A stretch of DNA of 64,000 nucleotides from an uncultured virus (IMG/VR IMGVR_UViG_3300044706_000059) (IMGVR_UViG_3300044706_000059:1-64000); one strand, 5' to 3'; shown: positions 5,859 to 59,036, counted from the stretch's first letter. Translations and numbers: made by a program. The notes: generated from the letters alone by a model not told the origin.

Positions 5859-6250
5859 TATGGTCGTGGGTATAGCGGATCTAATTGACTTAACCTTTTA
5901 TAATAAGCTTCTTCAAAACTCTTATTATTTTTTATTTGTGGATAATAAGCACGAAGAACATTTAAACTATTACATGACATAATATCTAACACTGTCAATC
6001 CTATTTCTCTATCTTCTGGTTTTACTTGTATTGAAGGTAAATAAGTATTGTTAGGAGTTACTTGGTAAGAACTTGGATGTTCATACACTCTACATCCACT
6101 TAAATACGCTTGTTGCAATATATATTCGTTGGCTTTGGCATAAGGTGGTTCTTCCGTTTCCTGATCGTAGGTCAGTTCATGCTTAAACCATTTCTTATTA
6201 CCATCAGGCAATGTAAATTCTTGGCTTACTCCTATTTTACAATCTTTCAT
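5858..6250 (-). CDS. Hypothetical phage protein (start revised to ATG at 6250, MKDCKIG)
   Basis: The track start at 6319 overlaps the upstream gene, whose stop ends at 6253. Confidence 0.6.
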   Translation of the reverse strand: MKDCKIGVSQEFTLPDGNKKWFKHELTYDQETEEPPYAKANEYILQQAYLSGCRVYEHPSSYQVTPNNTYLPSIQVKPEDREIGLTVLDIMSCNSLNVLRAYYPQIKNNKSFEEAYYKRLSQLDPLYPRP

Positions 6251-6252
6251 TT

Positions 6253-6423
6253 TTATATTGTGTTTACTAAAGCACGTTGATGCATTTTCTTTTCTTCCTC
6301 TGTTAATCCTTCCCAGCAATCCTTACAAACTACAGGATAACCGTGTTCATAACCGTTTTTAAATGGCATTACACAAAGTTCACATGCTTCTCCATTAATT
6401 ATTTGATCTGCGATATCACCCAT
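6253..6423 (-). CDS. Small zinc-ribbon protein, 56 aa
   Basis: MGDIADQIINGEACELC...GYPVVCKDCW; two CxxC pairs. Confidence 0.65.
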   Translation of the reverse strand: MGDIADQIINGEACELCVMPFKNGYEHGYPVVCKDCWEGLTEEEKKMHQRALVNTI

Positions 6424-6452
6424 AAATTATAGTTTGATTATTTTAAAATAAA

Positions 6453-6472
6453 GCTCCTATAGAAATAGGAGC
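6453..6472 (-). terminator. Intrinsic terminator-like hairpin
   Basis: GCTCCTAT/ATAGGAGC 8-bp stem followed by TTTATTTT on the minus strand. Confidence 0.55.
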
Positions 6473-6517
6473 CGTTTTATTATCACTTACCTTATGAAAA
6501 AAATATCAGTTTAAAAA

Positions 6518-6542
6518 AGCTCCGACCGAGTGCATCGGAGCT
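6518..6542 (-). terminator. Intrinsic terminator-like hairpin downstream of the RNA array
   Basis: AGCTCCGA/TCGGAGCT stem followed by a T-run on the minus strand. Confidence 0.6.
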
Positions 6543-6691
6543 ACACTAATCAGTAATACCAATAACCATAAACCTTATCCCTAAAAGAGTTAAATATTTT
6601 TCTGTAGAAAATCTCTGAGGTAGACACCCCGAGACTTTATGAGGGAGTCCCGTTCCTCATTAAACATTGCGTACCCTAAAAAAACAAAAAG

Positions 6692-6774
6692 TTAGGAGCG
6701 GCCATATTTCGCAACTCTTGCCTTTGGGTCTCCAACGAATACACTTTAGTATCCGGGCGATATTTCTCTCCTAA
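6692..6774 (-). ncRNA. Structured RNA module A of the array
   Basis: Closing stem TTAGGAG/CTCCTAA; internal hairpins CGGATAC/GTATTCG and TTGG-AGAC-CCAA. Confidence 0.55.
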
Positions 6775-6782
6775 TTAAAAAG

Positions 6783-6884
6783 TTTATTGGTTATACATGG
6801 TTCATCAGGCAGGCACTCAACTGGTAACCACAAACCTTAACCGGTATCAGCGCCCTTTCCGGGTTCGGAGTTATAACCAATAAA
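6783..6884 (-). ncRNA. Structured RNA module B
   Basis: Perfect 13-bp closing stem TTTATTGGTTATA/TATAACCAATAAA; internal GGGCGCT/AGTGCCT. Confidence 0.6.
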
Positions 6885-6891
6885 GAACGTA

Positions 6892-7042
6892 TGTATTTAT
6901 AGCTGCATTCGGTTTAGCTTACATAGTTTATTGTCGCTCACTTTCGGACTACTTAACCGGAAAGCTGTCTTTGAATACAGTTAAAGCGCGGCTTCTTAGC
7001 TATTTGATCAATTCTTCGCGCTAATGCACTACTATAAATACA
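6892..7042 (-). ncRNA. Structured RNA module C
   Basis: 11-bp closing stem TGTATTTATAG/CTATAAATACA extended by TGCATT/AATGCA; internal AGCGCG/CGCGCT. Confidence 0.6.
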
Positions 7043-7050
7043 ATAAAGTA

Positions 7051-7195
7051 TGTATTGACTAAAATCTGGCGGCGATTATTTTCGTGCTGCAAATCACGGG
7101 TTTTCGAAATCAGGATTGCGTTTTAAGCAATAAAGCTACTTCCCAACTGAAGCCATCCTTCCAGAATCAGCTTGCAATACCTATTAGCCAATACA
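7051..7195 (-). ncRNA. Structured RNA module D
   Basis: 12-bp closing stem TGTATTGGCTAA/TTAGTCAATACA whose one irregularity is a G-U pair on the minus strand. Confidence 0.6.
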
Positions 7196-7226
7196 ATAAG
7201 ATGTATATTATATTTTAAAGAACTTT

Positions 7227-7386
7227 CCCGGAGGGGTCGGTCTTTCCCGACTGTATAGGCCATATAAGCTGTACCTTCTCCGTGTTTTTATCGTGTCCAC
7301 GCGCTCACGTTGTATTATTCAAGTCCCCATAAAGGAACTGCACATCTCAGAACGGGGCCAGGATATGCGACTTAATTCACCCCGGA
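7227..7386 (-). ncRNA. Structured RNA module E
   Basis: Closing stem TCCGGGG/CTCCGGG; hairpins GCATATC/GATGTGC, AGTTCCT/GGGGACT, GTCGG/CCGAC. Confidence 0.5.
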
Positions 7387-7567
7387 TGGTGGATATGACT
7401 GGTGCCGACCCAGCTATCTGACAGTTGCCCCGCCCGCATTAGCGCCGCCAATGCTACCATACCTAAGAGCAGTTGATTAAAGAGTACTGCAAAACTCTGA
7501 GTGTTGCATTTGTTTTTTGCGCCATCCACCTAAGAACGCGTCACTGGTTGAACCACACAATCTATCC
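7387..7567 (-). ncRNA. CCA-ended tRNA-like / mini-tmRNA-like RNA
   Basis: 3' end GCTGG-GTCGGCA-CCAGT-CATATCC-ACCA; H-type pseudoknot at 7469-7498; tmRNA-like resume context AAAAAACAAAT-GCA. Confidence 0.45.
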
Positions 7568-7578
7568 AATAAGTTTAA

Positions 7579-7650
7579 TGACGGATGACAGGATTTACAC
7601 CTGCACCTTTACGTGATATGTTTGTGCTAAAAGTTACACCACATCCGTCA
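7579..7650 (-). ncRNA. Degenerate tRNA (acceptor, D and T arms intact; anticodon arm collapsed)
   Basis: ACGGATG/CATCCGT acceptor, GTGT/GCAC D stem, GCAGG-TGTAAAT-CCTGT T arm. Confidence 0.55.
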
Positions 7651-7657
7651 AAAAGTT

Positions 7658-7759
7658 TATTATCCCATTGTCCATGTATTCGATGTTTGTTAGGTCTTCA
7701 ATGAGTGTCATAACTATCGCCTTCAGGATCGCTTACGCGCTTTTGTCAATGGGATAATA
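7658..7759 (-). ncRNA. Structured RNA module G
   Basis: Perfect 13-bp closing stem TATTATCCCATTG/CAATGGGATAATA. Confidence 0.55.
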
Positions 7760-7826
7760 TGGTGCCGCCGTCCTTTCGGCATTCATTACTTATGAGATAA
7801 CGAATCGTTGTTTGCAACGCGGCGGG
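7760..7826 (-). ncRNA. 67-nt cloverleaf tRNA mimic with CUCAUAA loop and ACCA end
   Basis: CCCGCCG CGTTG-CAAA-CAACG ATTCGTTAT-CTCATAA-GTAATGAAT G CC-GAAA-GG A CGGCGGC ACCA. Confidence 0.65.
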
Positions 7827-7845
7827 TTTATTTCAAAGAATGTTA

Positions 7846-7921
7846 TTGGCTATTACGGATATTCCCGACTAAGCTCAGTAATTAACCCGCATCCTTTATG
7901 GAGGGAAGGATTAATAACCAA
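7846..7921 (-). ncRNA. Structured RNA module I
   Basis: 10-bp closing stem TTGGTTATTA/TAATAGCCAA (U-G on minus); hairpins ATCCTT/AAGGAT and CGG/CCG. Confidence 0.55.
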
Positions 7922-7939
7922 CTATTTAAAGAACTTATA

Positions 7940-8084
7940 TTCCCGGAGGGGGGCCAGTACCTTCATATATACTGGCCGGAGGTTAATCAATAACACACAA
8001 CTTCTTCATTTACTAATTCAGTTTCATCAAGATTAGTATCACATTGAGCAAAAAGTGAATAGTGATATACTAAATCAACGGGAA
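7940..8084 (-). ncRNA. Structured RNA module J (first in transcription order)
   Basis: TTCCCG/CGGGAA closing stem; GGCCAGTA/TACTGGCC hairpin; 3' tail shared with module E. Confidence 0.45.
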
Positions 8085-8104
8085 ATCCTGCTAACCAATA
8101 ATAT

Positions 8105-8368
8105 TCATTCAAAATGTGCTTTTAAAATATCAAGATCATATTGATCAATATTCGCCTTTACACATACTTCAAGTGTGCCTATACCAGATTTAAATGCCTC
8201 TCTAACTTCAGTTGATATCCCGTGACTTTGAATAATGGTTGCAAGACAACATGCGTATCCTTGTATAAAAGTGTTTTTTATTAGATTGCATCCGCTTATG
8301 CAATAATTCCGGCTTTTGCCACAATTACACTTATAAGCTACAATACCTTCTGATTCTAGAGTTTTCAT
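8105..8368 (-). CDS. Hypothetical Cys-rich phage protein
   Basis: Operonic ORF directly upstream of the RNA array. Confidence 0.6.
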   Translation of the reverse strand: MKTLESEGIVAYKCNCGKSRNYCISGCNLIKNTFIQGYACCLATIIQSHGISTEVREAFKSGIGTLEVCVKANIDQYDLDILKAHFE

Positions 8369-8371
8369 TAC

Positions 8372-8617
8372 TTAATTTTTAAACTGTCCGGAGGTTACTT
8401 GATCTTGAACAATTTCATTTTCATCAATATCTGAACAAGGAATAAATAATTCCGAATTATAAACAATTCCCAAATCATGCATGAGTTCATACCATAAGAC
8501 ATCATCTTCATCAATTTCTTCGTCAACCACATTATATACTTCACCAAATTTTAAATTAAATGGTGCTTCGTCAGGGCTGAATCCATCAGGAGATGTATTT
8601 ATGCACATTACTTTCAT
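8372..8617 (-). CDS. Hypothetical protein (MKVMCI..LKFGEVYNV, SH3-like)
   Basis: Pattern typical of small phage beta-barrel proteins. Confidence 0.6.
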   Translation of the reverse strand: MKVMCINTSPDGFSPDEAPFNLKFGEVYNVVDEEIDEDDVLWYELMHDLGIVYNSELFIPCSDIDENEIVQDQVTSGQFKN

Positions 8618-9548: not shown

Positions 9549-9616
9549 AACTATTTTTTATTGAAGGTAGTTTATTTAACTGTTCGGTAATTCCTAAGTG
9601 TTCAGTTTACAGAGGC

Positions 9617-9644
9617 TCTCTTAATGTCTCTTAAACTCTCTTAA
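9617..9644. repeat. Three TCTCTTAA direct repeats with 10-bp period
   Basis: Copies start at 9617, 9627 and 9637. Confidence 0.7.
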
Positions 9645-9816
9645 AAAGTAGAAAAAGTATAGAATAAGGATACTATTGTATGCTTATTTTAAACGTATAG
9701 TTGCTTGAATTGGTCAGGGCATATCAAATATAACCCTAACTACTCGAAATAAAAAAAGGCTCCGCTGACTGTTAATACAAACCTACAGGGAGCCTATGAC
9801 GGAACTTTCAAAACCG

Positions 9817-10254
9817 TCAGTCTCTTTCGCCACTTGCAAATGAAATCTGGATGCTTGAAGTCCAACCCTTACCGAATGTGCCATCCAGCGCTGACAATAA
9901 GGCTTCGGCTACTTTATGAGAGCCTTTCTTTGATTGCAATTGTTTAATAAGTTCATCCTTAATAGCTTGAGAATTTGTTTTTATTTGCTCAATAAGCTCT
10001 TTTTTTACTTCTTCCTGAATGATTTTAGTAACGTGATAATCGAGCCATGTGTGTTTATTATCGCTTTCATAGCGATTCACTTGCCCGTTAGAATCAACTT
10101 TAGTGTTGCATATCTGATGAATAACACCGGCTACTATTTTTTCAGAACCGCCCAATGCCGCTAAAACTGCTTCTTGAATTTTTGCGGCAACAATAGGCTG
10201 TGTTACTTCATTTGGAATTGAAAGATTCACCAATGATGAATTGTGTGTTGACAT
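9817..10254 (-). CDS. Hypothetical phage protein
   Basis: 145-aa ORF; promoter-like TTG..TATATTG upstream; AGGCTCC/GGAGCCT hairpin downstream. Confidence 0.7.
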   Translation of the reverse strand: MSTHNSSLVNLSIPNEVTQPIVAAKIQEAVLAALGGSEKIVAGVIHQICNTKVDSNGQVNRYESDNKHTWLDYHVTKIIQEEVKKELIEQIKTNSQAIKDELIKQLQSKKGSHKVAEALLSALDGTFGKGWTSSIQISFASGERD

Positions 10255-51991: not shown

Positions 51992-53458
51992 ATGGCAGTA
52001 GCTACTATAAATCCTTGGGCAGCGGGAGCTGTTGTATTTGATCAGCGTCCATTTTTACAGTTCTATGAGCAACAAATGGCTCGTAAACAAGCAAAAGATG
52101 ATGCTTTAGATAATTATTTCCGTGACCTTAATAAAAATGTTACATCTGCCGGCATGCGTTCACAAGATGTATCTAGTTTATTGAAAAAGCAACAGGATGC
52201 ACAGCAGTATTATTTTCAAAATAAGGCTCAGATATTAAATCCAAAATTAGATAATGGAGCAGCTTATTCCGAATATCAGGCACGGCATCAAGACATGCTA
52301 GGGTTAATTGATCAAAGCAAAGAAGCTGCTAAATCTATGGATGAGATAGGTAAAATGAAGTTAAACCCTCAGATGTCATACATATTTGAAGACCCAAAAT
52401 TCATGGATCAATTACGATCCCATGAATTACCAATAGGTGATCCAAATAGGAAGGGTATAACTTTAGCTTCATTAACTGTTCCAGATAAACCAGTTGATAT
52501 TAAAGAATGGGATGCGTATAATAAATATTTAACAGGAGGAATACCACATGATAAAATACCTGGAGAAACAAAAAGTATAGGTAATTTCAAAACAAGCACC
52601 CCTATTTATCAGCAATACAGTCCTGAAAATCAAAAAGTAATTGCCGAGCATGCAATGAATGCTTACGAAAGTGATAGAAGATGGCGTACAGAAGCTAACA
52701 AAACATTTCAGGATATTATGCATGATCCTATGAAATATGATCAGTATAATAAAATGTATAAATCTATATACGGGAAAGATATTGATACTCCTAAAGAAGC
52801 ATGGGCAGCAAAAGGGATTATAGATAATAATATGAAGGCGGTGGAATACAAAGAAGGAGAAGACTTTGTGGCTAAGGAAAGATTCAAAGATGCTTTAAGT
52901 AGAGCAAGCCAAGAAGAATTGATAAAATTCAGGAAAAATATTGATCCTAATGATATGGAATTGAATAATCAATGGATTGATCGGTATTTACAAAACAGAT
53001 TGCAAACCGCAATGTCAGATGAAGCCAATTATAGAAAAGTTTATACACCACATACAACAAAGTACGGATATGAAATAAGCATGGATCCGGTTTTGGCAAA
53101 GTCATTTTCAAGGGGAGGCAGTGAACCAGATAGACTATATGTAACAGATGATGGACAAAAAATATGGCCTATCTTCTATAAATACGAAAAAGACCCTAAA
53201 ACAAAACAAACCATTCTTGTTAAAAATGATAAAGGCGATCCAGTGATAGATGAAGATATTAGTAAACCTTTAGAAATGGATCAAGCTAAATTAGCAATGG
53301 GATATAGAGGAGAAACAAAAAAACAGTTAGGCAAGACTATGAGTTCCAAAACTAAATCGACACAACCTAAATATCCTTTGCCGGCAGGTAAACCTGCAAC
53401 AGTAAAACAAAACGGATATACATATCATTGGAATAGCGAAATAGGATCGTATGAGTAG
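51992..53458 (+). CDS. Internal virion / ejection protein
   Basis: 488-aa helical protein; C-terminal QNGYTYHWN..YE. Confidence 0.6.
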   Translation: MAVATINPWAAGAVVFDQRPFLQFYEQQMARKQAKDDALDNYFRDLNKNVTSAGMRSQDVSSLLKKQQDAQQYYFQNKAQILNPKLDNGAAYSEYQARHQDMLGLIDQSKEAAKSMDEIGKMKLNPQMSYIFEDPKFMDQLRSHELPIGDPNRKGITLASLTVPDKPVDIKEWDAYNKYLTGGIPHDKIPGETKSIGNFKTSTPIYQQYSPENQKVIAEHAMNAYESDRRWRTEANKTFQDIMHDPMKYDQYNKMYKSIYGKDIDTPKEAWAAKGIIDNNMKAVEYKEGEDFVAKERFKDALSRASQEELIKFRKNIDPNDMELNNQWIDRYLQNRLQTAMSDEANYRKVYTPHTTKYGYEISMDPVLAKSFSRGGSEPDRLYVTDDGQKIWPIFYKYEKDPKTKQTILVKNDKGDPVIDEDISKPLEMDQAKLAMGYRGETKKQLGKTMSSKTKSTQPKYPLPAGKPATVKQNGYTYHWNSEIGSYE

Positions 53459-56400
53459 TAAAACATTTCCATCTAGTGGCACAAAGCCAAAATTTAACCC
53501 AGATGCAGATTATGAAGCTGTAGCAGATGCTCCTACGCCGAAAAGTAATAAACCCGCTTTTAATCCAAATGCTCATTTTGAACCAGTTCATGAAGAAAGA
53601 ACAGAGCCGGTTGCACAACCGGCTTTTCATGTTGAATTATCAACCCCTACATTTAAATCAGCACCTGCACAAACAGGGCCTAATACCTTTCAATATAATG
53701 CACCCGCAGAAGCAGGCGACATTATTAAACTAGGAGGTAAAGCTAGAGTAGCACAAGAAAATCTACATAAAGAATTATCTACCAATAAACAAGCATTAGG
53801 CAGAGTTATAGTTAATGATAGGATAAAGCAACAAGAAAAAAATAGACAAGCGGGCATAGTCGGCCCACAATTAACTGATCCATTATTTATAACTGATGAC
53901 GATTTAAATAAGGTAAATACCGAAGCTACAACTAATAGAGATAGAGCTAACCAAGTACTTAGTGCTGCCATGCAAATAAATCCTGAAAAAGCTCAGGAAA
54001 TACAAAAGAATGCTTACATGGTGGATGCCTTTAATAATGCTGCTCAGGATGTGAACGGAAATGAAAGGGTTAATAAAATAGAAGAAAACGCAAAGGCTAT
54101 TAGCAAAGGAGAATTGAATTATGACCATCACAACCAAATATTAAGTAAGCCGGAAGGATTCTTTGGAAGTTTAGTTTCTGCAAGAAATGAATTGAATAGA
54201 TTATCTGATGCCTACGATTATACCAAAAAAATGGAAGATGGAGGAAATGAAGCAGGTATAATAATGGAATTGAATAATAGAATAAAACGTGATCCAGATG
54301 AACCTGTTAAAATGCCAACAGGGTTATTGGGACATTTAGGCGCTAATATTGGAGGAATGCCCATTAAGGGATTAGCCGCCGGTACTGTAGCAGGTATTGG
54401 TACCTCACTGTTAGGTAATCCAGAAGCATCCGAAGCTGCGTTTAATATGGCAAGTGCAGGGGTAAATGCTAATGATATGTACAAAATAGGATATCAAAAT
54501 GCATTAGAGCAAAACTATGCCCTATTAAAACGGGATCATCCAGATATGCCAGATTATACCGCTTTTAAACAAGCTCAGGATTTAGCAGGTAAACAAGCGG
54601 TGGTTGATGCTGCATCGGCAGCAGCAATGCAATATTTAGGAGGCAAAGCCGGTTTTGGGGCAAGTAAACAATTGGCAAAGGGAATATCGAGTGGCTTATC
54701 ACAAGTAAAAGATGAATTGGGTAAAAAAGCATTTGAATCATTAGGGGTAGGTGCTATAGGGGCTGGCGGCCAAACTATAAAAAATCTGATGGCTCAAAAT
54801 GCAGGATTGAATGTACCCACATCCGAAGGCGCAATGGATCAATTTACTACAGGATTATTAATGACAGGTGCAATGTCAATGTTAGGATTAGGTAAAGATA
54901 TTTTGAAACCATTCACAAAAGCCAAATTAGCAAGTGGTATAGCTAAATTACCTGATAATGTAGTTGAACAAGGATTAAATAAAGTAGAGCAAGCAGGTCA
55001 TTTAACACCAGAACAGTTACAGAATGTAAAAGATATAATTAGCGAACAAAAAGCATTAGAAAATTCAATACCAGAAACGCTGCCGGAAAGCGATAGACAA
55101 AAAATAGGTGACAAGATAAAGGAGCGTTCACAACTAAAACAGCAATTAGAACAAGTAGATGAAGCGTATCATCCTGAATTAAAAGATAAAATAAAAAAAC
55201 TAAATGAAGATATATTAAGCATATCGAAAGGTTCAGAACGAGGTGAATTGCAACAGTTAGTTCATGGCGAAATTAACAAAGGGAATGTGCAAGGATATTT
55301 AACCGATATCCTACGAAATGCCAACGAAAAGGAATTAGAGCAATATATGAAGGAAATTTCCGAGCAAGCACATGATCCAGCATCCGAAGAAAATACAATT
55401 AAAACCTTCGGAGAAAAAATAGTTAATAAGGCTAAAGAATTATATCCGAAAAAAGAATCAGCCGTTTCAGTAATACAACCTGGGGAAATAAAACAACCTG
55501 AAACTATTACAATTGCACCACGCGAAAGGCCATCAGATATAAAATCTACTGAAAATGTATCAGTAATAATGCCTAATGAGGCAGGAGCCGGTAAGGTAGT
55601 TCCCGACAATATTGGTCATGTGGAAGTTAGCGAACATGGGGAAGATACCAAAACGGAAGCTGGTCAAGAAAATGGTACTCAACCTTCCAAACTTTCCGAA
55701 GATGGAATTAAGGAAGCTAAAGAACTGGGCAATTATTTAGCAGAAAATAATAAAACAAAAATAATTACCAGTGAAGTTCAGCGGGCGCAAGAAACGGCCC
55801 ATACTGCTGCTGCGGAAGTCAAAAATGCAACTGGTAAAGAAATACCAGTAGAAACTAACCCTTTGTTAAATACATGGAATATTGGTGAATATGACGGTAA
55901 GCCAGAAGGATCATTCAATGAAAAAGAATGGATAGATAAACCCAATGAAGCCCCAAAAGGCGGGGAAAGTTTTAATGACTTTAAAGGTCGTATGGAGCAA
56001 GCATATCAATATGTAAAATCATTACCAGAAGATAATCACGTCGTTTCTCATTCAAAAGTAATGAGAGCATTAGAAGCCTTAAAACAAACAGATGGTAAAT
56101 GGACAGACGAAACAACAAAGGAATTTTTAAACAATAAAGAATTACCCAATGCCGTTCCAATCCAAAGCACAAATGGCCTGGATGTTCGCCAACAAACCGG
56201 CAATGGCGAAACGATGGGCGAAGGAAACACCCAACCCGAAATCATTACCGGAACACAAGGAGGAAGCACCGAAGAAAAAAGTAATGATCAAGGTGAGGAA
56301 AACAAAATAGAAAATCTTACCATTGATGATGCATACGGATTACCATTTATTGATGAACCGGGAGATAAAAGAACAGGGGTTAAAAATAAAATTTCTGACC

Positions 56401-59036
56401 AAATAAGATTTGAGAGAAAACTACCGGAAGTGCCAATTATAAAAATGGGCTCGGATGTAGAAAAATTACAATTAGGGAAGGAGTTAGTAGATAGTGGTAA
56501 AATAAATCCATTAGATATTGTAAATAGAGTATTGAATGCGCCAGAAGGGGAACATGGAGTACAACCGAATGAAGTATTAGCATTACAATATTATATGCAT
56601 CAATTAAATAAACATGAGACTAATTTAAGGGAACAAAAAGCTAGGGCGGAAACTCCCATAGAAGAAGCTGAAATAAATGGGCAATTGCAACAATTGTCTG
56701 ATGAAATAGACGCTGCTACTAGAGCAAATAAAATAAGTGGGAATGCATGGCATTACGTGGGAGATTTTAGACAAATAGAGGTAGATACTGGTTATAATCC
56801 TCACAGAGACGTAGATTTAATTAGAGACGCGTATGGAGGAGAAATTCCTTCGGAAGTAAAAGCTCGGTTGGATAAAGTATTGAAAGAAAGAGATGACGCA
56901 TTAAATAAATTAGCTAAACTTCAAATAGAACAGACTAAGCAAGCCGCGGATGAAACTATAAAAAAGGAAAGTCCGCCAAAGAATCCTAAAAAATCAGCTA
57001 CTGACTTTAAGAATGAACGTACAGAAATAAAAAAATCCATTTCAGATAAATTAAAGAAAGGAAGAACAGGTGAAAGTGGGTTGACTGCCGTTCCATTACC
57101 ATTTGCAAAAGAACTTATTTCGATAACGCCTGAAATATTCCAGTTAATAAAAAGCTATGCAGAAGAAGGGGTGCAGAAAACAGAGGAAATAATTAACCGT
57201 TTACACGAAGTATTAAAAGATGAATTGGATGGTATTCAAAAATCAGATATTGTTAACTTATTGGCTGGTAAGTATAAGGCACAAGGTGAAGAAGTTGACC
57301 CGATAGCACAACGAATAAGAGATTATAGAACGGAAGCTAATATTTGGACTAAAATTGCTGCCGCGCTTAAAATGGAGGAAGATACGCCTAAGAAAAAAGA
57401 GGAAAAGAATAAAAAATTACAGGATTTACGAGATCGGTTAAATGACATACGGAAGCGCAATAAGGAAGCAGTTAAAGAAATACAATCCATTCTGACACCG
57501 GAAATGGCTAAAAAAGAATTAACGGATGCCGAAAAGGAACTAAATAGGTTAGAAAAGTTAAGAAAGTCAACAGAAACCAAATTTGCTAATAAAAAATATC
57601 TACAACCAGAAACTAAAAAAAGTACAGCTCTTAATACTGCTATAGTAAAAGAAAAACAACGTATAGCGAATGCCCAATATAATATTAGAGTAGAAAAAAG
57701 AAAGGCATTTGAATCTCAAAAGAACTTTTACCAAAAAGCATTAATGTGGACAGGCAGAGCTATAAGACTTTCTATATTGTCAGGGTATAATGTATTAGGT
57801 AAATTGGCTGCTGCTGCTACTATAGGTGGTGCAGGAAAGCGTATTCCAGAACAAGCAATCGGATTTATTTATGGTCAAGCATTCAGAGGAATAGCCGAGA
57901 AAGCGCCAATTGAAGGATTTACAAATGCAAAGGCAGAAGCTAAATTTTATAAAGAGTTCTTTAATCCAAAAACCTTTGCAAAAAATGCATGGCAAATATT
58001 AAAAACTGGAGAATCACCACTAAGCAAACAATTTTCAAGTGGACAATATGAACATATTCCCGGCTTATATTTGCCTACTGATTTGCACCAGATTATTAAA
58101 GACCCATTGAAACGTGCTACTTATGAAGCATCATTGAAAAATGCTATGGTGTGGGCTGAAAGACAAGGGTTAGATATTAACGATGACTTGGTAATGCAGT
58201 CATTGCAAACAGCGGCTTACAAACGGGCCCAGTATGAAATATTCCAAGAATCAAACGTTTTGTCGCGCAAATTTGGTGAATGGAAAAGCAATATGGAGAA
58301 AAAGGGTAATTGGGGAGCGACAGGTAAATTTTTGGCTGATTTCATGGTGCCGGTAAGTACAGTGCCTACTAATATTGCCCGGCGTGTTGTAACTACCTCA
58401 CCATTAGGACTAATACGCGGGGGAGTTAAAGTTGTTGAAGCCTACAGAAAAGGAATAGAAAATCTCACCCCAGAAGAGGCCGATTCAGTAATGAAGCAGC
58501 TAAAACAGGGTACATTGGGTACGGCTTTATGGTTAATAGGTTGGTATGGTGCTTCTTATTTTGGTGGTTTATATAGTAAATTCAACCCAAATAAAAGCCG
58601 TGATCAGGGCGAATTAAAATCGGATGAAATGTCGGTAGGAGGGAAAATGATTCCAAAGCCAATACAACACGCGTTACCATTAGAAGTGATTCAATTTGCG
58701 GCAACAGCCCGACACGTTTATGATCATTATAGTGATAAAGGTGCATCCACAGCGGAAACAATTGAGAAAGCAGGCTTAGCAAGCATAGGGGGATTAACTG
58801 AACAAATTCCAATCCTTGAATCAGCAGTGCACGCTATTGGCGCAACTACCGATCCGTACGAAGCTAAAAAACTAGAAGATGACGCAAAACGTAGGTTTGA
58901 ACCACAAATTTTGAAAGAAACAGGAATAATAGGAAAAGAATCTGGTGGTAGCGGAGGTGGTGCCGGCGCTACCGGAACAGTAAGCAAACCAACTAGAGAA
59001 CATAGACCTACAAGAACACATAAAACTCATAGATAA
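53451..59036 (+). CDS. Giant internal virion / ejection protein with a histidine-phosphatase-like domain
   Basis: 1861 aa; N-terminal FNPxAx(Y/F)ExV repeats; G/A-rich helices; EHG..LSEDG..SEVQRAQET..GESF..VSHS. Confidence 0.7.
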   Translation: MSSKTFPSSGTKPKFNPDADYEAVADAPTPKSNKPAFNPNAHFEPVHEERTEPVAQPAFHVELSTPTFKSAPAQTGPNTFQYNAPAEAGDIIKLGGKARVAQENLHKELSTNKQALGRVIVNDRIKQQEKNRQAGIVGPQLTDPLFITDDDLNKVNTEATTNRDRANQVLSAAMQINPEKAQEIQKNAYMVDAFNNAAQDVNGNERVNKIEENAKAISKGELNYDHHNQILSKPEGFFGSLVSARNELNRLSDAYDYTKKMEDGGNEAGIIMELNNRIKRDPDEPVKMPTGLLGHLGANIGGMPIKGLAAGTVAGIGTSLLGNPEASEAAFNMASAGVNANDMYKIGYQNALEQNYALLKRDHPDMPDYTAFKQAQDLAGKQAVVDAASAAAMQYLGGKAGFGASKQLAKGISSGLSQVKDELGKKAFESLGVGAIGAGGQTIKNLMAQNAGLNVPTSEGAMDQFTTGLLMTGAMSMLGLGKDILKPFTKAKLASGIAKLPDNVVEQGLNKVEQAGHLTPEQLQNVKDIISEQKALENSIPETLPESDRQKIGDKIKERSQLKQQLEQVDEAYHPELKDKIKKLNEDILSISKGSERGELQQLVHGEINKGNVQGYLTDILRNANEKELEQYMKEISEQAHDPASEENTIKTFGEKIVNKAKELYPKKESAVSVIQPGEIKQPETITIAPRERPSDIKSTENVSVIMPNEAGAGKVVPDNIGHVEVSEHGEDTKTEAGQENGTQPSKLSEDGIKEAKELGNYLAENNKTKIITSEVQRAQETAHTAAAEVKNATGKEIPVETNPLLNTWNIGEYDGKPEGSFNEKEWIDKPNEAPKGGESFNDFKGRMEQAYQYVKSLPEDNHVVSHSKVMRALEALKQTDGKWTDETTKEFLNNKELPNAVPIQSTNGLDVRQQTGNGETMGEGNTQPEIITGTQGGSTEEKSNDQGEENKIENLTIDDAYGLPFIDEPGDKRTGVKNKISDQIRFERKLPEVPIIKMGSDVEKLQLGKELVDSGKINPLDIVNRVLNAPEGEHGVQPNEVLALQYYMHQLNKHETNLREQKARAETPIEEAEINGQLQQLSDEIDAATRANKISGNAWHYVGDFRQIEVDTGYNPHRDVDLIRDAYGGEIPSEVKARLDKVLKERDDALNKLAKLQIEQTKQAADETIKKESPPKNPKKSATDFKNERTEIKKSISDKLKKGRTGESGLTAVPLPFAKELISITPEIFQLIKSYAEEGVQKTEEIINRLHEVLKDELDGIQKSDIVNLLAGKYKAQGEEVDPIAQRIRDYRTEANIWTKIAAALKMEEDTPKKKEEKNKKLQDLRDRLNDIRKRNKEAVKEIQSILTPEMAKKELTDAEKELNRLEKLRKSTETKFANKKYLQPETKKSTALNTAIVKEKQRIANAQYNIRVEKRKAFESQKNFYQKALMWTGRAIRLSILSGYNVLGKLAAAATIGGAGKRIPEQAIGFIYGQAFRGIAEKAPIEGFTNAKAEAKFYKEFFNPKTFAKNAWQILKTGESPLSKQFSSGQYEHIPGLYLPTDLHQIIKDPLKRATYEASLKNAMVWAERQGLDINDDLVMQSLQTAAYKRAQYEIFQESNVLSRKFGEWKSNMEKKGNWGATGKFLADFMVPVSTVPTNIARRVVTTSPLGLIRGGVKVVEAYRKGIENLTPEEADSVMKQLKQGTLGTALWLIGWYGASYFGGLYSKFNPNKSRDQGELKSDEMSVGGKMIPKPIQHALPLEVIQFAATARHVYDHYSDKGASTAETIEKAGLASIGGLTEQIPILESAVHAIGATTDPYEAKKLEDDAKRRFEPQILKETGIIGKESGGSGGGAGATGTVSKPTREHRPTRTHKTHR
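56149..56310 (+). CDS. Nested out-of-frame 53-aa basic protein (MPFQSKAQ type)
   Basis: MPFQSKAQMAWMFANKPAMAKRWAKETPNPKSLPEHKEEAPKKKVMIKVRKTK in the +1 frame of the giant gene. Confidence 0.65.
   Translation: MPFQSKAQMAWMFANKPAMAKRWAKETPNPKSLPEHKEEAPKKKVMIKVRKTK

Follow-up and report, generated by a model that had tools for sequence, protein, structure and literature searches.

Genomic context of the island

The window analysed here comprises 64,000 nucleotides of an uncultured virus (IMGVR_UViG_3300044706_000059:1-64000) and belongs to a linear IMG/VR virus record of 76,331 bases with a completeness estimate of 62%. Positions 6452-8104 of the window hold the subject of this study, an island made of a row of modules (M1 to M11), closed to varying degrees by pairing between their own ends, and of two boxed elements with terminators behind them. 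The locus is real and unusual: it is kin to the RNAs known from phage tRNA regions, and its architecture is new. PHROGs matches in the phage include a terminase, a portal protein and a recombinase of the RecA/UvsX type. The terminase is ~26% identical to those of Flavobacterium and Cellulophaga podophages, and all 85 matching records lie below 60% identity. The metagenomes that contain DNA of this phage come from soil and rhizosphere. The host is probably a member of the Chitinophagaceae, since the terminal element of the island recurs in many genomes of this family.

The array of modules occupies the interval 6583-8104, between the stop of the open reading frame (ORF) at 8105-8368 and the terminators. 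A preliminary description of this DNA saw no credible ORF there, and we agree. The longest ORFs measure 74 aa on the plus strand and 50 aa, with a GTG start, on the minus strand; reading the stretch with alternative codes (TAG=Q or TGA=W) yields no convincing ORF; and the three small array ORFs tested match no PHROGs family, with large protein databases not searched for the 50-aa ORF. The GC content of the array is 0.39-0.48 versus 0.30-0.35 in the flanks. Minus-strand terminators lie at 6542-6518 and 6473-6452, where the array had been proposed to stop, and the sole minus-strand terminator candidate inside it is a weak 5-bp one at 7819-7806. The linkers between modules read as first written. 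Direct repeats in the array are short two-copy ones only (7-28 nt, chiefly linkers), which agrees with the earlier view that it is neither CRISPR nor a simple repeat; CRISPR and the repeats of type III toxin-antitoxin systems (ToxI-like) were rejected because there are no tandem, near-identical, regular repeats. The features are given below in the order of the minus strand, where z is the folding z-score of that strand relative to shuffled sequence and L-numbers designate loci fetched for comparison.

7940..8084, minus strand: M11, first module past the stop of ORF 8105-8368; 6-bp closing stem; z -2.74
7922..7936, minus strand: first copy of the island motif, AAGTTCTTTAAATAG; covered by a 30-nt match to L011
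7846..7921, minus strand: M10, 76 nt; closing stem of 9 + 1 G-U (10 bp); two inner hairpins; z -2.05 (-) versus -0.46 (+)
7760..7845, minus strand: M9, hairpin cluster GCCGCCG..CGGCGGC without an end-to-end stem; z -2.30
7658..7759, minus strand: M8, 102 nt; perfect 13-bp closing stem enclosing 76 nt; z -4.00
7579..7650, minus strand: M7, degenerate tRNA-like element; 9-bp closing stem; minimal member of family A
7227..7578, minus strand: M5 and M6, GC-richest part (0.48); weak or no closing stems; z +0.24 and -0.12
7227/7386: closing stem of M5, 6 + 2 G-U
7377-7529, minus strand: 50-aa GTG ORF inside M5-M6, with a membrane-like hydrophobic segment; no PHROG
7196..7225, minus strand: second copy of the island motif and its long linker, AAGTTCTTTAAAATATAATATACATCTTATTG; matches L012 7012-6982 with 82% identity over 33 nt
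7051..7195, minus strand: M4, 145 nt; closing stem of 12 + 1 G-U; folding energy -35.8 (-) versus -28.0 (+)
6892..7042, minus strand: M3, 151 nt; closing stem of 11 bp perfect, 16 with three G-U; z -2.76
6783..6884, minus strand: M2, 102 nt; perfect 13-bp closing stem (TTTATTGGTTATA) enclosing 76 nt; z -2.24
6692..6774, minus strand: M1, 83 nt; closing stem of 8 bp + 1 mismatch, at chance level; z -1.66
6510..6582, minus strand: copy of a host-family small RNA, GGATAAGGTTTATGGTTATTGGTATTACTGATTAGTG, with terminator hairpin 6542-6518 and T-run; 3' end of the island
6452..6502, minus strand: second boxed element, TTTTTCATAAGGTAAGTGATAATAAAAC, with terminator hairpin 6473-6452

Closing stems and folding of the modules

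Nine terminal stems had been described. All of them are present at the module ends; those of M2, M3, M4 and M8 (11-16 bp) alone exceed chance, and stems of 6-9 bp occur as in shuffled sequence. Perfect inverted repeats of at least 10 bp with a spacing of 40-200 nt number three, versus 0.23 in shuffles (3 of 500 shuffles reach three). Stems scoring at least 12 number four, versus 0.42 in shuffles; one of 300 shuffles and none of the 80 other tiles of the window reach that number. Because weaker stems arise equally in shuffles, M1, M5, M6, M9 and M11 are not individually supported. The closing stem of M11 is at chance level; inside the module lies a 9-bp hairpin, GGCCAGTAC..GTACTGGCC, followed by CCCCCTCCGGGAA. 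Supported modules are M2, M3, M4 and M8 by their stems, M7 by an RNA family model and perhaps M10. The figure of about ten distinct RNAs was accordingly too generous, as stems or models rise above chance in just five or six modules.

The sense strand is the minus strand. Its closing stems hold seven G-U pairs versus three on the plus strand, a bias to which the preliminary description had already pointed, and the summed folding energy of the modules is -344 kcal/mol on the minus versus -312 on the plus strand. The z-scores of single modules, whose boundaries had been picked by their stems, range from +0.24 to -4.00 on the minus strand. An excess over shuffled sequence is seen for the long stems, which are enriched; thermodynamic support is weak, a sliding scan and the stretch 7196-7578, to which we return below, showing no such excess. 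In M3 a rival pairing of 15 nt also exists, between 6920-6934 and the linker 7040-7054. GNRA tetraloops number five versus one, against a background of 2-3 per 1.5 kb, and their enrichment was discarded as not significant.

A tRNA-like module and its relatives

Rfam at gathering thresholds gives no match in the 64 kb, and a whole-window scan with default filters missed M7. In sensitive mode, the region 6300-8400 has one real match, to tRNA (RF00005), at 7580-7648 on the minus strand, with 33.4 bits versus a gathering score of 29. At E-values up to 10 the same region has five weak or unrelated matches only, and tRNA is the sole Rfam family that the array matches. ARAGORN finds no tRNA or tmRNA in the window and no tmRNA in the related loci scanned. 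M7 is laid out as an acceptor stem, a D-like arm and a T-like arm, GCAGG-UGUAAAU-CCUGU. The anticodon arm is replaced by 13 nt (17 in the model), in which no stem is predicted and the 5-bp stem with a 7-nt loop is lacking. The T-loop consensus for the contact between D-loop and T-loop is UUCRANY; that of M7 reads UGUAAAU, and no CCA is encoded. With 13 nt in place of the anticodon arm and such a T-loop, M7 appears to be a tRNA-shaped element that can hardly decode. The idea that the modules are tRNA mimics thus holds for this one module; a role as decoys or aptamers remains conjecture.

In L011, a tRNA-like element matches the T-arm, 3' acceptor strand and linker of M7 (77% over 39 nt, E = 0.002). 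Together with elements of L011, L085, L089 and L090, M7 forms a family, which we call family A. Its larger members have a closing helix of 10-13 bp and a 5' D-like hairpin, then a multi-helix insert of ~100 nt; a T-like hairpin, GCAGG-loop-CCUGC, abuts the 3' strand and is clearest in L085, L089 and L090. In the closing helix of family A (five sequences, two with the same stem), 98.3% of cells are paired and 6 of 13 pairs are changed on both sides. The covariation score is 0.515 versus 0.204 in shuffles, none of 500 of which reach it, and falls to 0.10 or less when the partners are slid. The 13-bp stem of the L089 member has three G-U pairs on the sense strand. In a further family, B (three sequences, from L011, L089 and L085), 6 of 25 pairs are compensatory. 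Since the module interiors of the window are without homologues, covariation could be assessed only in the families of the relatives and in one pair of M8; to this extent the covariation foreseen in homologues was found, in the closing helices of two module families of relatives and in that M8 pair.

Several known RNAs were considered and rejected: tmRNA (no ARAGORN tmRNA, no Rfam match at E up to 10); GOLLD, ROOL and other large Rfam RNAs (none at gathering score in the 64 kb, none at E up to 10 in 6300-8400); and Y RNA (YrlA) with Ro60 (no Rfam match, no TROVE or RtcB domain in a Pfam scan of 61 ORFs). The only canonical tRNA of the phage record lies outside the window, 61 kb from the island, at 69,169-69,245 of G000 (L259 5169-5245, minus strand; 60.4 bits). 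ARAGORN reads it as tRNA-Ser with the odd anticodon ACT, and it adjoins a 385-aa IS1595-type transposase with a NUMOD-like C-terminal domain (L259 3962-5119).

Islands in related phages

Related loci were sampled in three ways: 49 through the RecA-like gene, 19 metagenome loci through an exonuclease gene 4 kb downstream and 27 IMG/VR loci through the terminal element. Seven further islands were found, in L011, L012, L076, L085 (the same record as L098 and L113), L089, L090 and L110. Three are at the same spot: L011 and L012 have the gene order in common, and the L076 array lies upstream of the same exonuclease. Those of L085, L089, L090 and L110 were recognised through shared island elements. 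The related islands measure 0.7-1.4 kb, are co-oriented with the exonuclease gene and mix true tRNAs, tRNA-derived elements with inserts of ~100 nt and other stem-closed modules. Their sequences have almost nothing in common with the modules of the window; their construction is alike. The proteins encoded beside the islands in these phages are only 31-86% identical.

The proposal that the array occupies the slot in which related phages carry tRNAs is borne out by tRNA-Leu in L085, tRNA-Ala in L089 and a tRNA-like gene in L110, all in arrays that share the end element of the island. ARAGORN finds the tRNA-Leu(UAA) of L085 (62 bits) and the tRNA-Ala(UGC) of L089 (69 bits); the tRNA of L110 is odd (46.8 bits). 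Across the five records searched with RF00005, the scores are 62.2 (tRNA-Leu, found twice in the inverted-repeat record of L098), 46.8 (L110 record), 33.4 (M7), 27.9 (L011) and 21.1 (L012); three further matches (60.4, 18.7 and 17.6 bits) fall outside the arrays as extracted. Some 450 nt upstream of its small-RNA box, L110 (IMG/VR 3300005719_000009) also contains, as judged by eye, a stretch like the 3' half of a tRNA (T-arm GGTTCGAATCC and 3' acceptor strand) that precedes a 5' half (acceptor, D-arm) and is then followed by a AAGTTCTTTTAAATAG motif. It is possibly a permuted or rearranged tRNA gene.

Individual pieces of the window island recur elsewhere. The outer stem of M2, TTTATTGGTT..AACCAATAAA, is also present in L085 at 5994-6090, and the 5' arm of M4 with its linker (18 nt, ATCTTAYTGTATTGGCTA) recurs in L012 before a different interior. 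Homology between M4 and the L012 module beyond this shared motif was judged too weak (MAFFT, 64% mean column identity). Exact-pattern scans recovered the records of L012 and L011 themselves (L071, L072) and that of L085, the rest being chance; matches in L069 and L070, which are in coding sequence, and in L120-L124 were dismissed as such. Loci L001-L005, fetched through a 219-aa neighbour gene, have only that gene in common with the window. The near-identical phage record G001 begins 93 nt before the RecA-like gene, does not match the island anywhere and is uninformative on it.

Cassette turnover in a close variant

Contigs of one soil sample represent a variant of the phage that is ~90-97% identical to the window, and a 13.5-kb contig among them aligns with it in blocks. 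Four joints between blocks fall in the island, at or within the closing arms of three modules (M2, M4 and M7) and around M9. Joint 6789>6870 takes out the inside of M2, 7061>7185 that of M4 and 7588>7650 that of M7; at 7758>7828, M9 is replaced by 107 other letters. A fifth joint, 8021>8419, cuts the 5' part of M11, which is swapped in the variant, and the upstream ORF. M3, M5-M6, M8 and M10 align, M5-M6 as a single block (window 7185-7576, ~390 nt) with 13 mismatches and 28 gap letters. As these modules align and the joints hit the interiors of M2, M4, M7 and M9, the comparison indicates that closing arms and linkers are kept and that interiors are exchanged or have diverged beyond 90%. M8 shows a double change from G-C to A-U at the pair 7718/7682, whose pairing probability is 0.98. 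Among the six differences listed for M8, two make up this pair, three lie in loops and one opens an A-U pair that ends a short helix.

Island motif, punctuation and the terminal small-RNA copy

Three traits had gone unremarked in the preliminary description: the exchangeable-cassette behaviour seen in the variant, a motif specific to the arrays and the host-family small RNA that is copied at the island's end. The motif, AAGTTCTTTAAATA (AAGTTCTTT), has the consensus AAGTTCTT(T/A)..A(A/T)(A/T)TA. It has two copies on the minus strand of the window (7936 and 7225), both in the island, and none on the plus strand. Nine copies are found in six of the eight arrays and none in five Chitinophagaceae genomes (~40 Mb). 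In L090 and L076 the motif comes after a terminator-like hairpin at the start of the island, which suggests that it may be a promoter. It is unlike the -7 box of the host, and a cleavage signal would be equally possible. A AAGTTCTTT-like match in G005 outside an island lies antisense inside a gene and was therefore set aside as chance. A second, shorter shared signal is the punctuation ACATAC-N-TTCTTTATTG, which the window has in common with L089 and L090 and which is altered in L012.

The terminal element (6510-6582) is the diverged copy of a ~70-nt small-RNA gene with the box GGATAAGGTTTAATGGTTAATGGTATTTGATTAGTGC, which is not in Rfam. The features that define the family, namely the box GGATAAGGTT..TGGTATT..TGATTAGTG, a GC hairpin and a T-run, are all present in it. 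The gene is multicopy in Chitinophagaceae genomes, with at least 120 pattern matches and three copies in one Niastella genome. In 80 fetched genome loci, 66 places pass a prefix filter, and ~59 of them have the full box and hairpin by eye, in a family that has not been curated. Every host copy is equipped with a terminator and, ~10 nt upstream, with a TAnnTTTG box. Host copies have the -7 box TATATTTG, and the window has, at the same distance, AATATTTA, which matches at 6 of 8 positions and contains no exact TAnnTTTG. The gene is solitary in ~15 of the 27 IMG/VR loci. Directly behind the small-RNA copy stands the second box, TTTTTCATA(A/T)GGTAAG.., which is also found in L011 (5182-5100) and L089 (1095-1160) and, by eye, in L076 and L110. 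One Niastella genome has a similar 5' second box, which is located upstream of a gene (L261 1495-1520).

Other features of the window and related records

The gap between two minus-strand ORFs at 9549-9816 has the strongest folding signal in the 5.4 kb scanned, with z = -5.6 and -5.3 on the two strands at 9700-9819; it contains a terminator-like hairpin, GGCTCC..GGAGCC, with a T-run. At 53451-59036 the window encodes a protein of 1861 aa in the virion block, with a histidine-phosphatase domain (His_Phos_1) at residues 729-874. Six independent related contigs (L007-L010, L014, L022) stop 90-500 nt upstream of the RecA-like gene, and two records are flagged with inverted terminal repeats. These stops suggest either a physical genome end or a repeat that breaks assembly; the record of the window reads through there.

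Origin and possible function of the island

The island is best explained as this phage's version of the fast-changing tRNA island that related Chitinophagaceae podophages appear to carry. With about as much confidence as doubt, we read it as a cassette-like RNA island that is derived from a tRNA island, expressed from the minus strand and processed into stable small RNAs acting as mimics or decoys; its transcription, processing and function are inferred. It would be read on the minus strand together with a block of small leftward genes and would end at the terminators at 6518 and 6452. The transcript would fold into a row of self-contained domains, with M2, M3, M4, M7, M8 and M10 each shut by pairing of its own 5' and 3' ends. 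Host endonucleases may cut the single-stranded, A/U-rich punctuation (ACAUAC-N-UUCUUUAUUG, AACUUUUU), RNase P acting at the tRNA-like M7 and an enzyme of the RNase E/G or Y type elsewhere, and exonucleases may then trim the products to the closing helices. Stable RNAs of ~70-190 nt would result, as in tRNA operons and in the T4 cluster of tRNAs, RNAC and RNAD, and the last product would be a look-alike of the host small RNA. The AAGTTCTTTAAATA motif would be the island-specific signal, as an internal promoter or a cleavage site. The RNAs may work in trans, mimicking host RNAs or serving as their decoys, and would titrate factors of tRNA-directed defence or of processing as well as the host small RNA's partners; the modules would be exchanged between phages like accessory genes. 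A function in mimicry and titration is suggested by the tRNA ancestry of family A, by a turnover of cassettes such as conflict loci typically show and by the capture of a host small RNA.

A number of observations weigh against such a set of functional small RNAs. The module interiors of the window have no homologue in the ~200 loci fetched; searches of Chitinophagaceae genomes with the modules (five, then 301) gave nothing convincing, a 36-nt match of 86% identity in one of the 301 being taken for chance; and a distant blastn search of 6400-8200 against GenBank phages gave no match. At a stem score of at least 8, shuffled sequence is itself 72% tiled by ~8 modules. In an unbiased sliding scan of 120 nt, the mean z is -0.39 in the array versus -0.23 in the flanks (p = 0.21), and M5-M6 (7196-7578), which make up a quarter of the island, do not outdo shuffles in folding (z = +0.30). 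Being strand-symmetric, the perfect 13-bp arms would suit a role at the DNA level too. No host-type TAnnTTTG promoter occurs on the minus strand of 6300-8500, and on that ground the short linkers were rejected as promoters. Antisense targets in the phage genome are limited to matches of 13-14 nt (E at least 0.36). None of the listed runs with the locus is recorded as RNA; X9 and X10 carry a metatranscriptomic label but are probably DNA, the contigs of X9 being the same variant DNA as X6 and X10 giving nothing.

The main rival explanation is a graveyard of decaying tRNA genes and recombination scrap, functionless, in which stems persist because tRNA-like inverted repeats and the linkers TTTATTG / CAATAAA recombine. 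The tRNA scores in the arrays do grade from canonical to weak (62.2 to 21.1 bits), M7 is without an anticodon stem or canonical T-loop, M5-M6 and the sliding scan lack a folding signal, and the interiors, which have no homologues, are swapped wholesale in the close variant. Decay would not be expected, however, to leave two perfect 13-bp closing stems and one of 11 bp, compensatory changes in M8, family A and family B, or a GC content kept well above that of the flanks. Phages whose proteins beside the island have diverged as far as described above still conserve motif and punctuation, and 1.5 kb of scrap is rarely retained at one place in several phage lineages. We consider this explanation improbable. 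Less credit still is due to a DNA-level element, in which the inverted repeats would be hairpins for replication or recombination or attC-like sites of cassette exchange and RNA would be irrelevant. On either strand the arms of M2, M3, M7 and M8 pair perfectly, the variant's breakpoints lie in or beside arms, and the 18-nt linker and arm ATCTTAYTGTATTGGCTA recur in L012 before a different interior. This is countered by the strand bias of G-U pairs, in the window and in the L089 stem, by the real tRNA genes of the same orientation and the terminators in related islands, and by the GC content, since structural RNA genes typically stand out by raised GC in an AT-rich genome. Pfam found RusA only in the 21 neighbouring ORFs, hence no integrase or recombinase beside the island; an integron cassette array was rejected because these ORFs hold no integrase domain and the modules no ORFs, in a search that did not include attC models.

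The remaining rivals concern what the island encodes. One or two large multi-domain RNAs of the GOLLD/ROOL kind, in place of many small ones, would account for the lack of minus-strand terminators inside the array, save the weak one at 7819-7806, and for the ~390-nt block that M5-M6 form in the variant, and GOLLD and ROOL are known from phages near tRNAs. We give this a slim chance, given that no Rfam match to GOLLD, ROOL or any large RNA appeared at E up to 10 and that 7196-7578 shows no folding signal. One tertiary fold is also hard to reconcile with domains that close on themselves and are replaced singly while their neighbours stay untouched. It is very unlikely that the island is partly coding, with very small protein genes such as the 50-aa GTG ORF at 7377-7529 and some modules as untranslated spacers. 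The membrane-like segment of this ORF and a 63-aa ORF right after the motif in the L011 island speak for it, whereas the lack of PHROGs families for three ORFs, the GTG start and the fact that only 153 nt of the island would be explained speak against it.

Comparison with known systems

Phage T4 transcribes a pair of small RNAs, named RNAC and RNAD and of unknown role, from its tRNA region (PMC3014915). The window island is similar in placing putative small RNAs beside tRNA or tRNA-like genes in a phage tRNA region. It differs in lacking a canonical tRNA, in having up to about ten non-tRNA modules versus two in T4, in the long end-to-end helices of its modules, in cassette exchange and in the terminal copy of a host small RNA; judged by Rfam only, there is no sequence relationship. 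The T4 RNAs are presumably matured by the tRNA-processing machinery. M7 and family A resemble tRNAs and viral tRNA-like elements, many candidates for which are reported from a large IMG/VR screen of phages (PMC10690425). They keep an acceptor-like helix and D-like and T-like hairpins in tRNA order; unlike in tRNAs, the anticodon arm is absent (M7) or replaced by the multi-helix insert of ~100 nt (L011, L085, L089, L090), the T-loop departs from UUCRANY, no CCA is encoded, and ARAGORN rejects them. In the open-access literature we found no description of an array of this type.

GOLLD and ROOL are phage-borne, non-coding, GC-rich RNAs of unknown function that adjoin tRNA genes. The window locus is likewise phage-borne, non-coding and GC-rich, but it is modular, with units that are individually replaceable, and has no Rfam match. 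In the stalks of rRNA operons and the RNase III sites of T7, pairing of the flanks encloses a product and marks its excision from a polycistronic transcript. The modules are enclosed in a similar way, by stems that at 9-16 bp are shorter than classical RNase III substrates. The terminal element resembles the multicopy small RNAs of Bacteroidota, its Chitinophagaceae family having a -7 box, a nearly invariant single-stranded box and a terminator in each copy; it differs from them as a diverged copy carried by a phage at the end of an RNA island.

More broadly, such loci could be described as accessory RNA islands of Chitinophagaceae phages. Derived from tRNA islands, they would consist of self-closing cassettes that are swapped at conserved junctions and excised by means of shared punctuation, and would form an RNA-only toolkit for counter-defence and host takeover, with tRNA-shaped decoys, small-RNA mimics and aptamers. 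This wider concept is tentative and, taken as a whole, rather unlikely; if true, it would make the islands the RNA counterpart of the fast-evolving gene islands for anti-defence proteins. Phage tRNA regions hide small RNAs of unknown role, and RNAC and RNAD of T4 have stayed unexplained for decades. The island offers a richer comparative case, with several distinct modules, tRNA-derived elements with large inserts in relatives, cassette turnover and a captured host small RNA, and both the host small-RNA family and the island-specific motif lend themselves to direct testing. Should the RNAs be produced and work as mimics, phages would diversify non-coding RNAs as they do anti-defence proteins, and the island would lead to host factors in the Bacteroidota, about whose RNA biology little is known.

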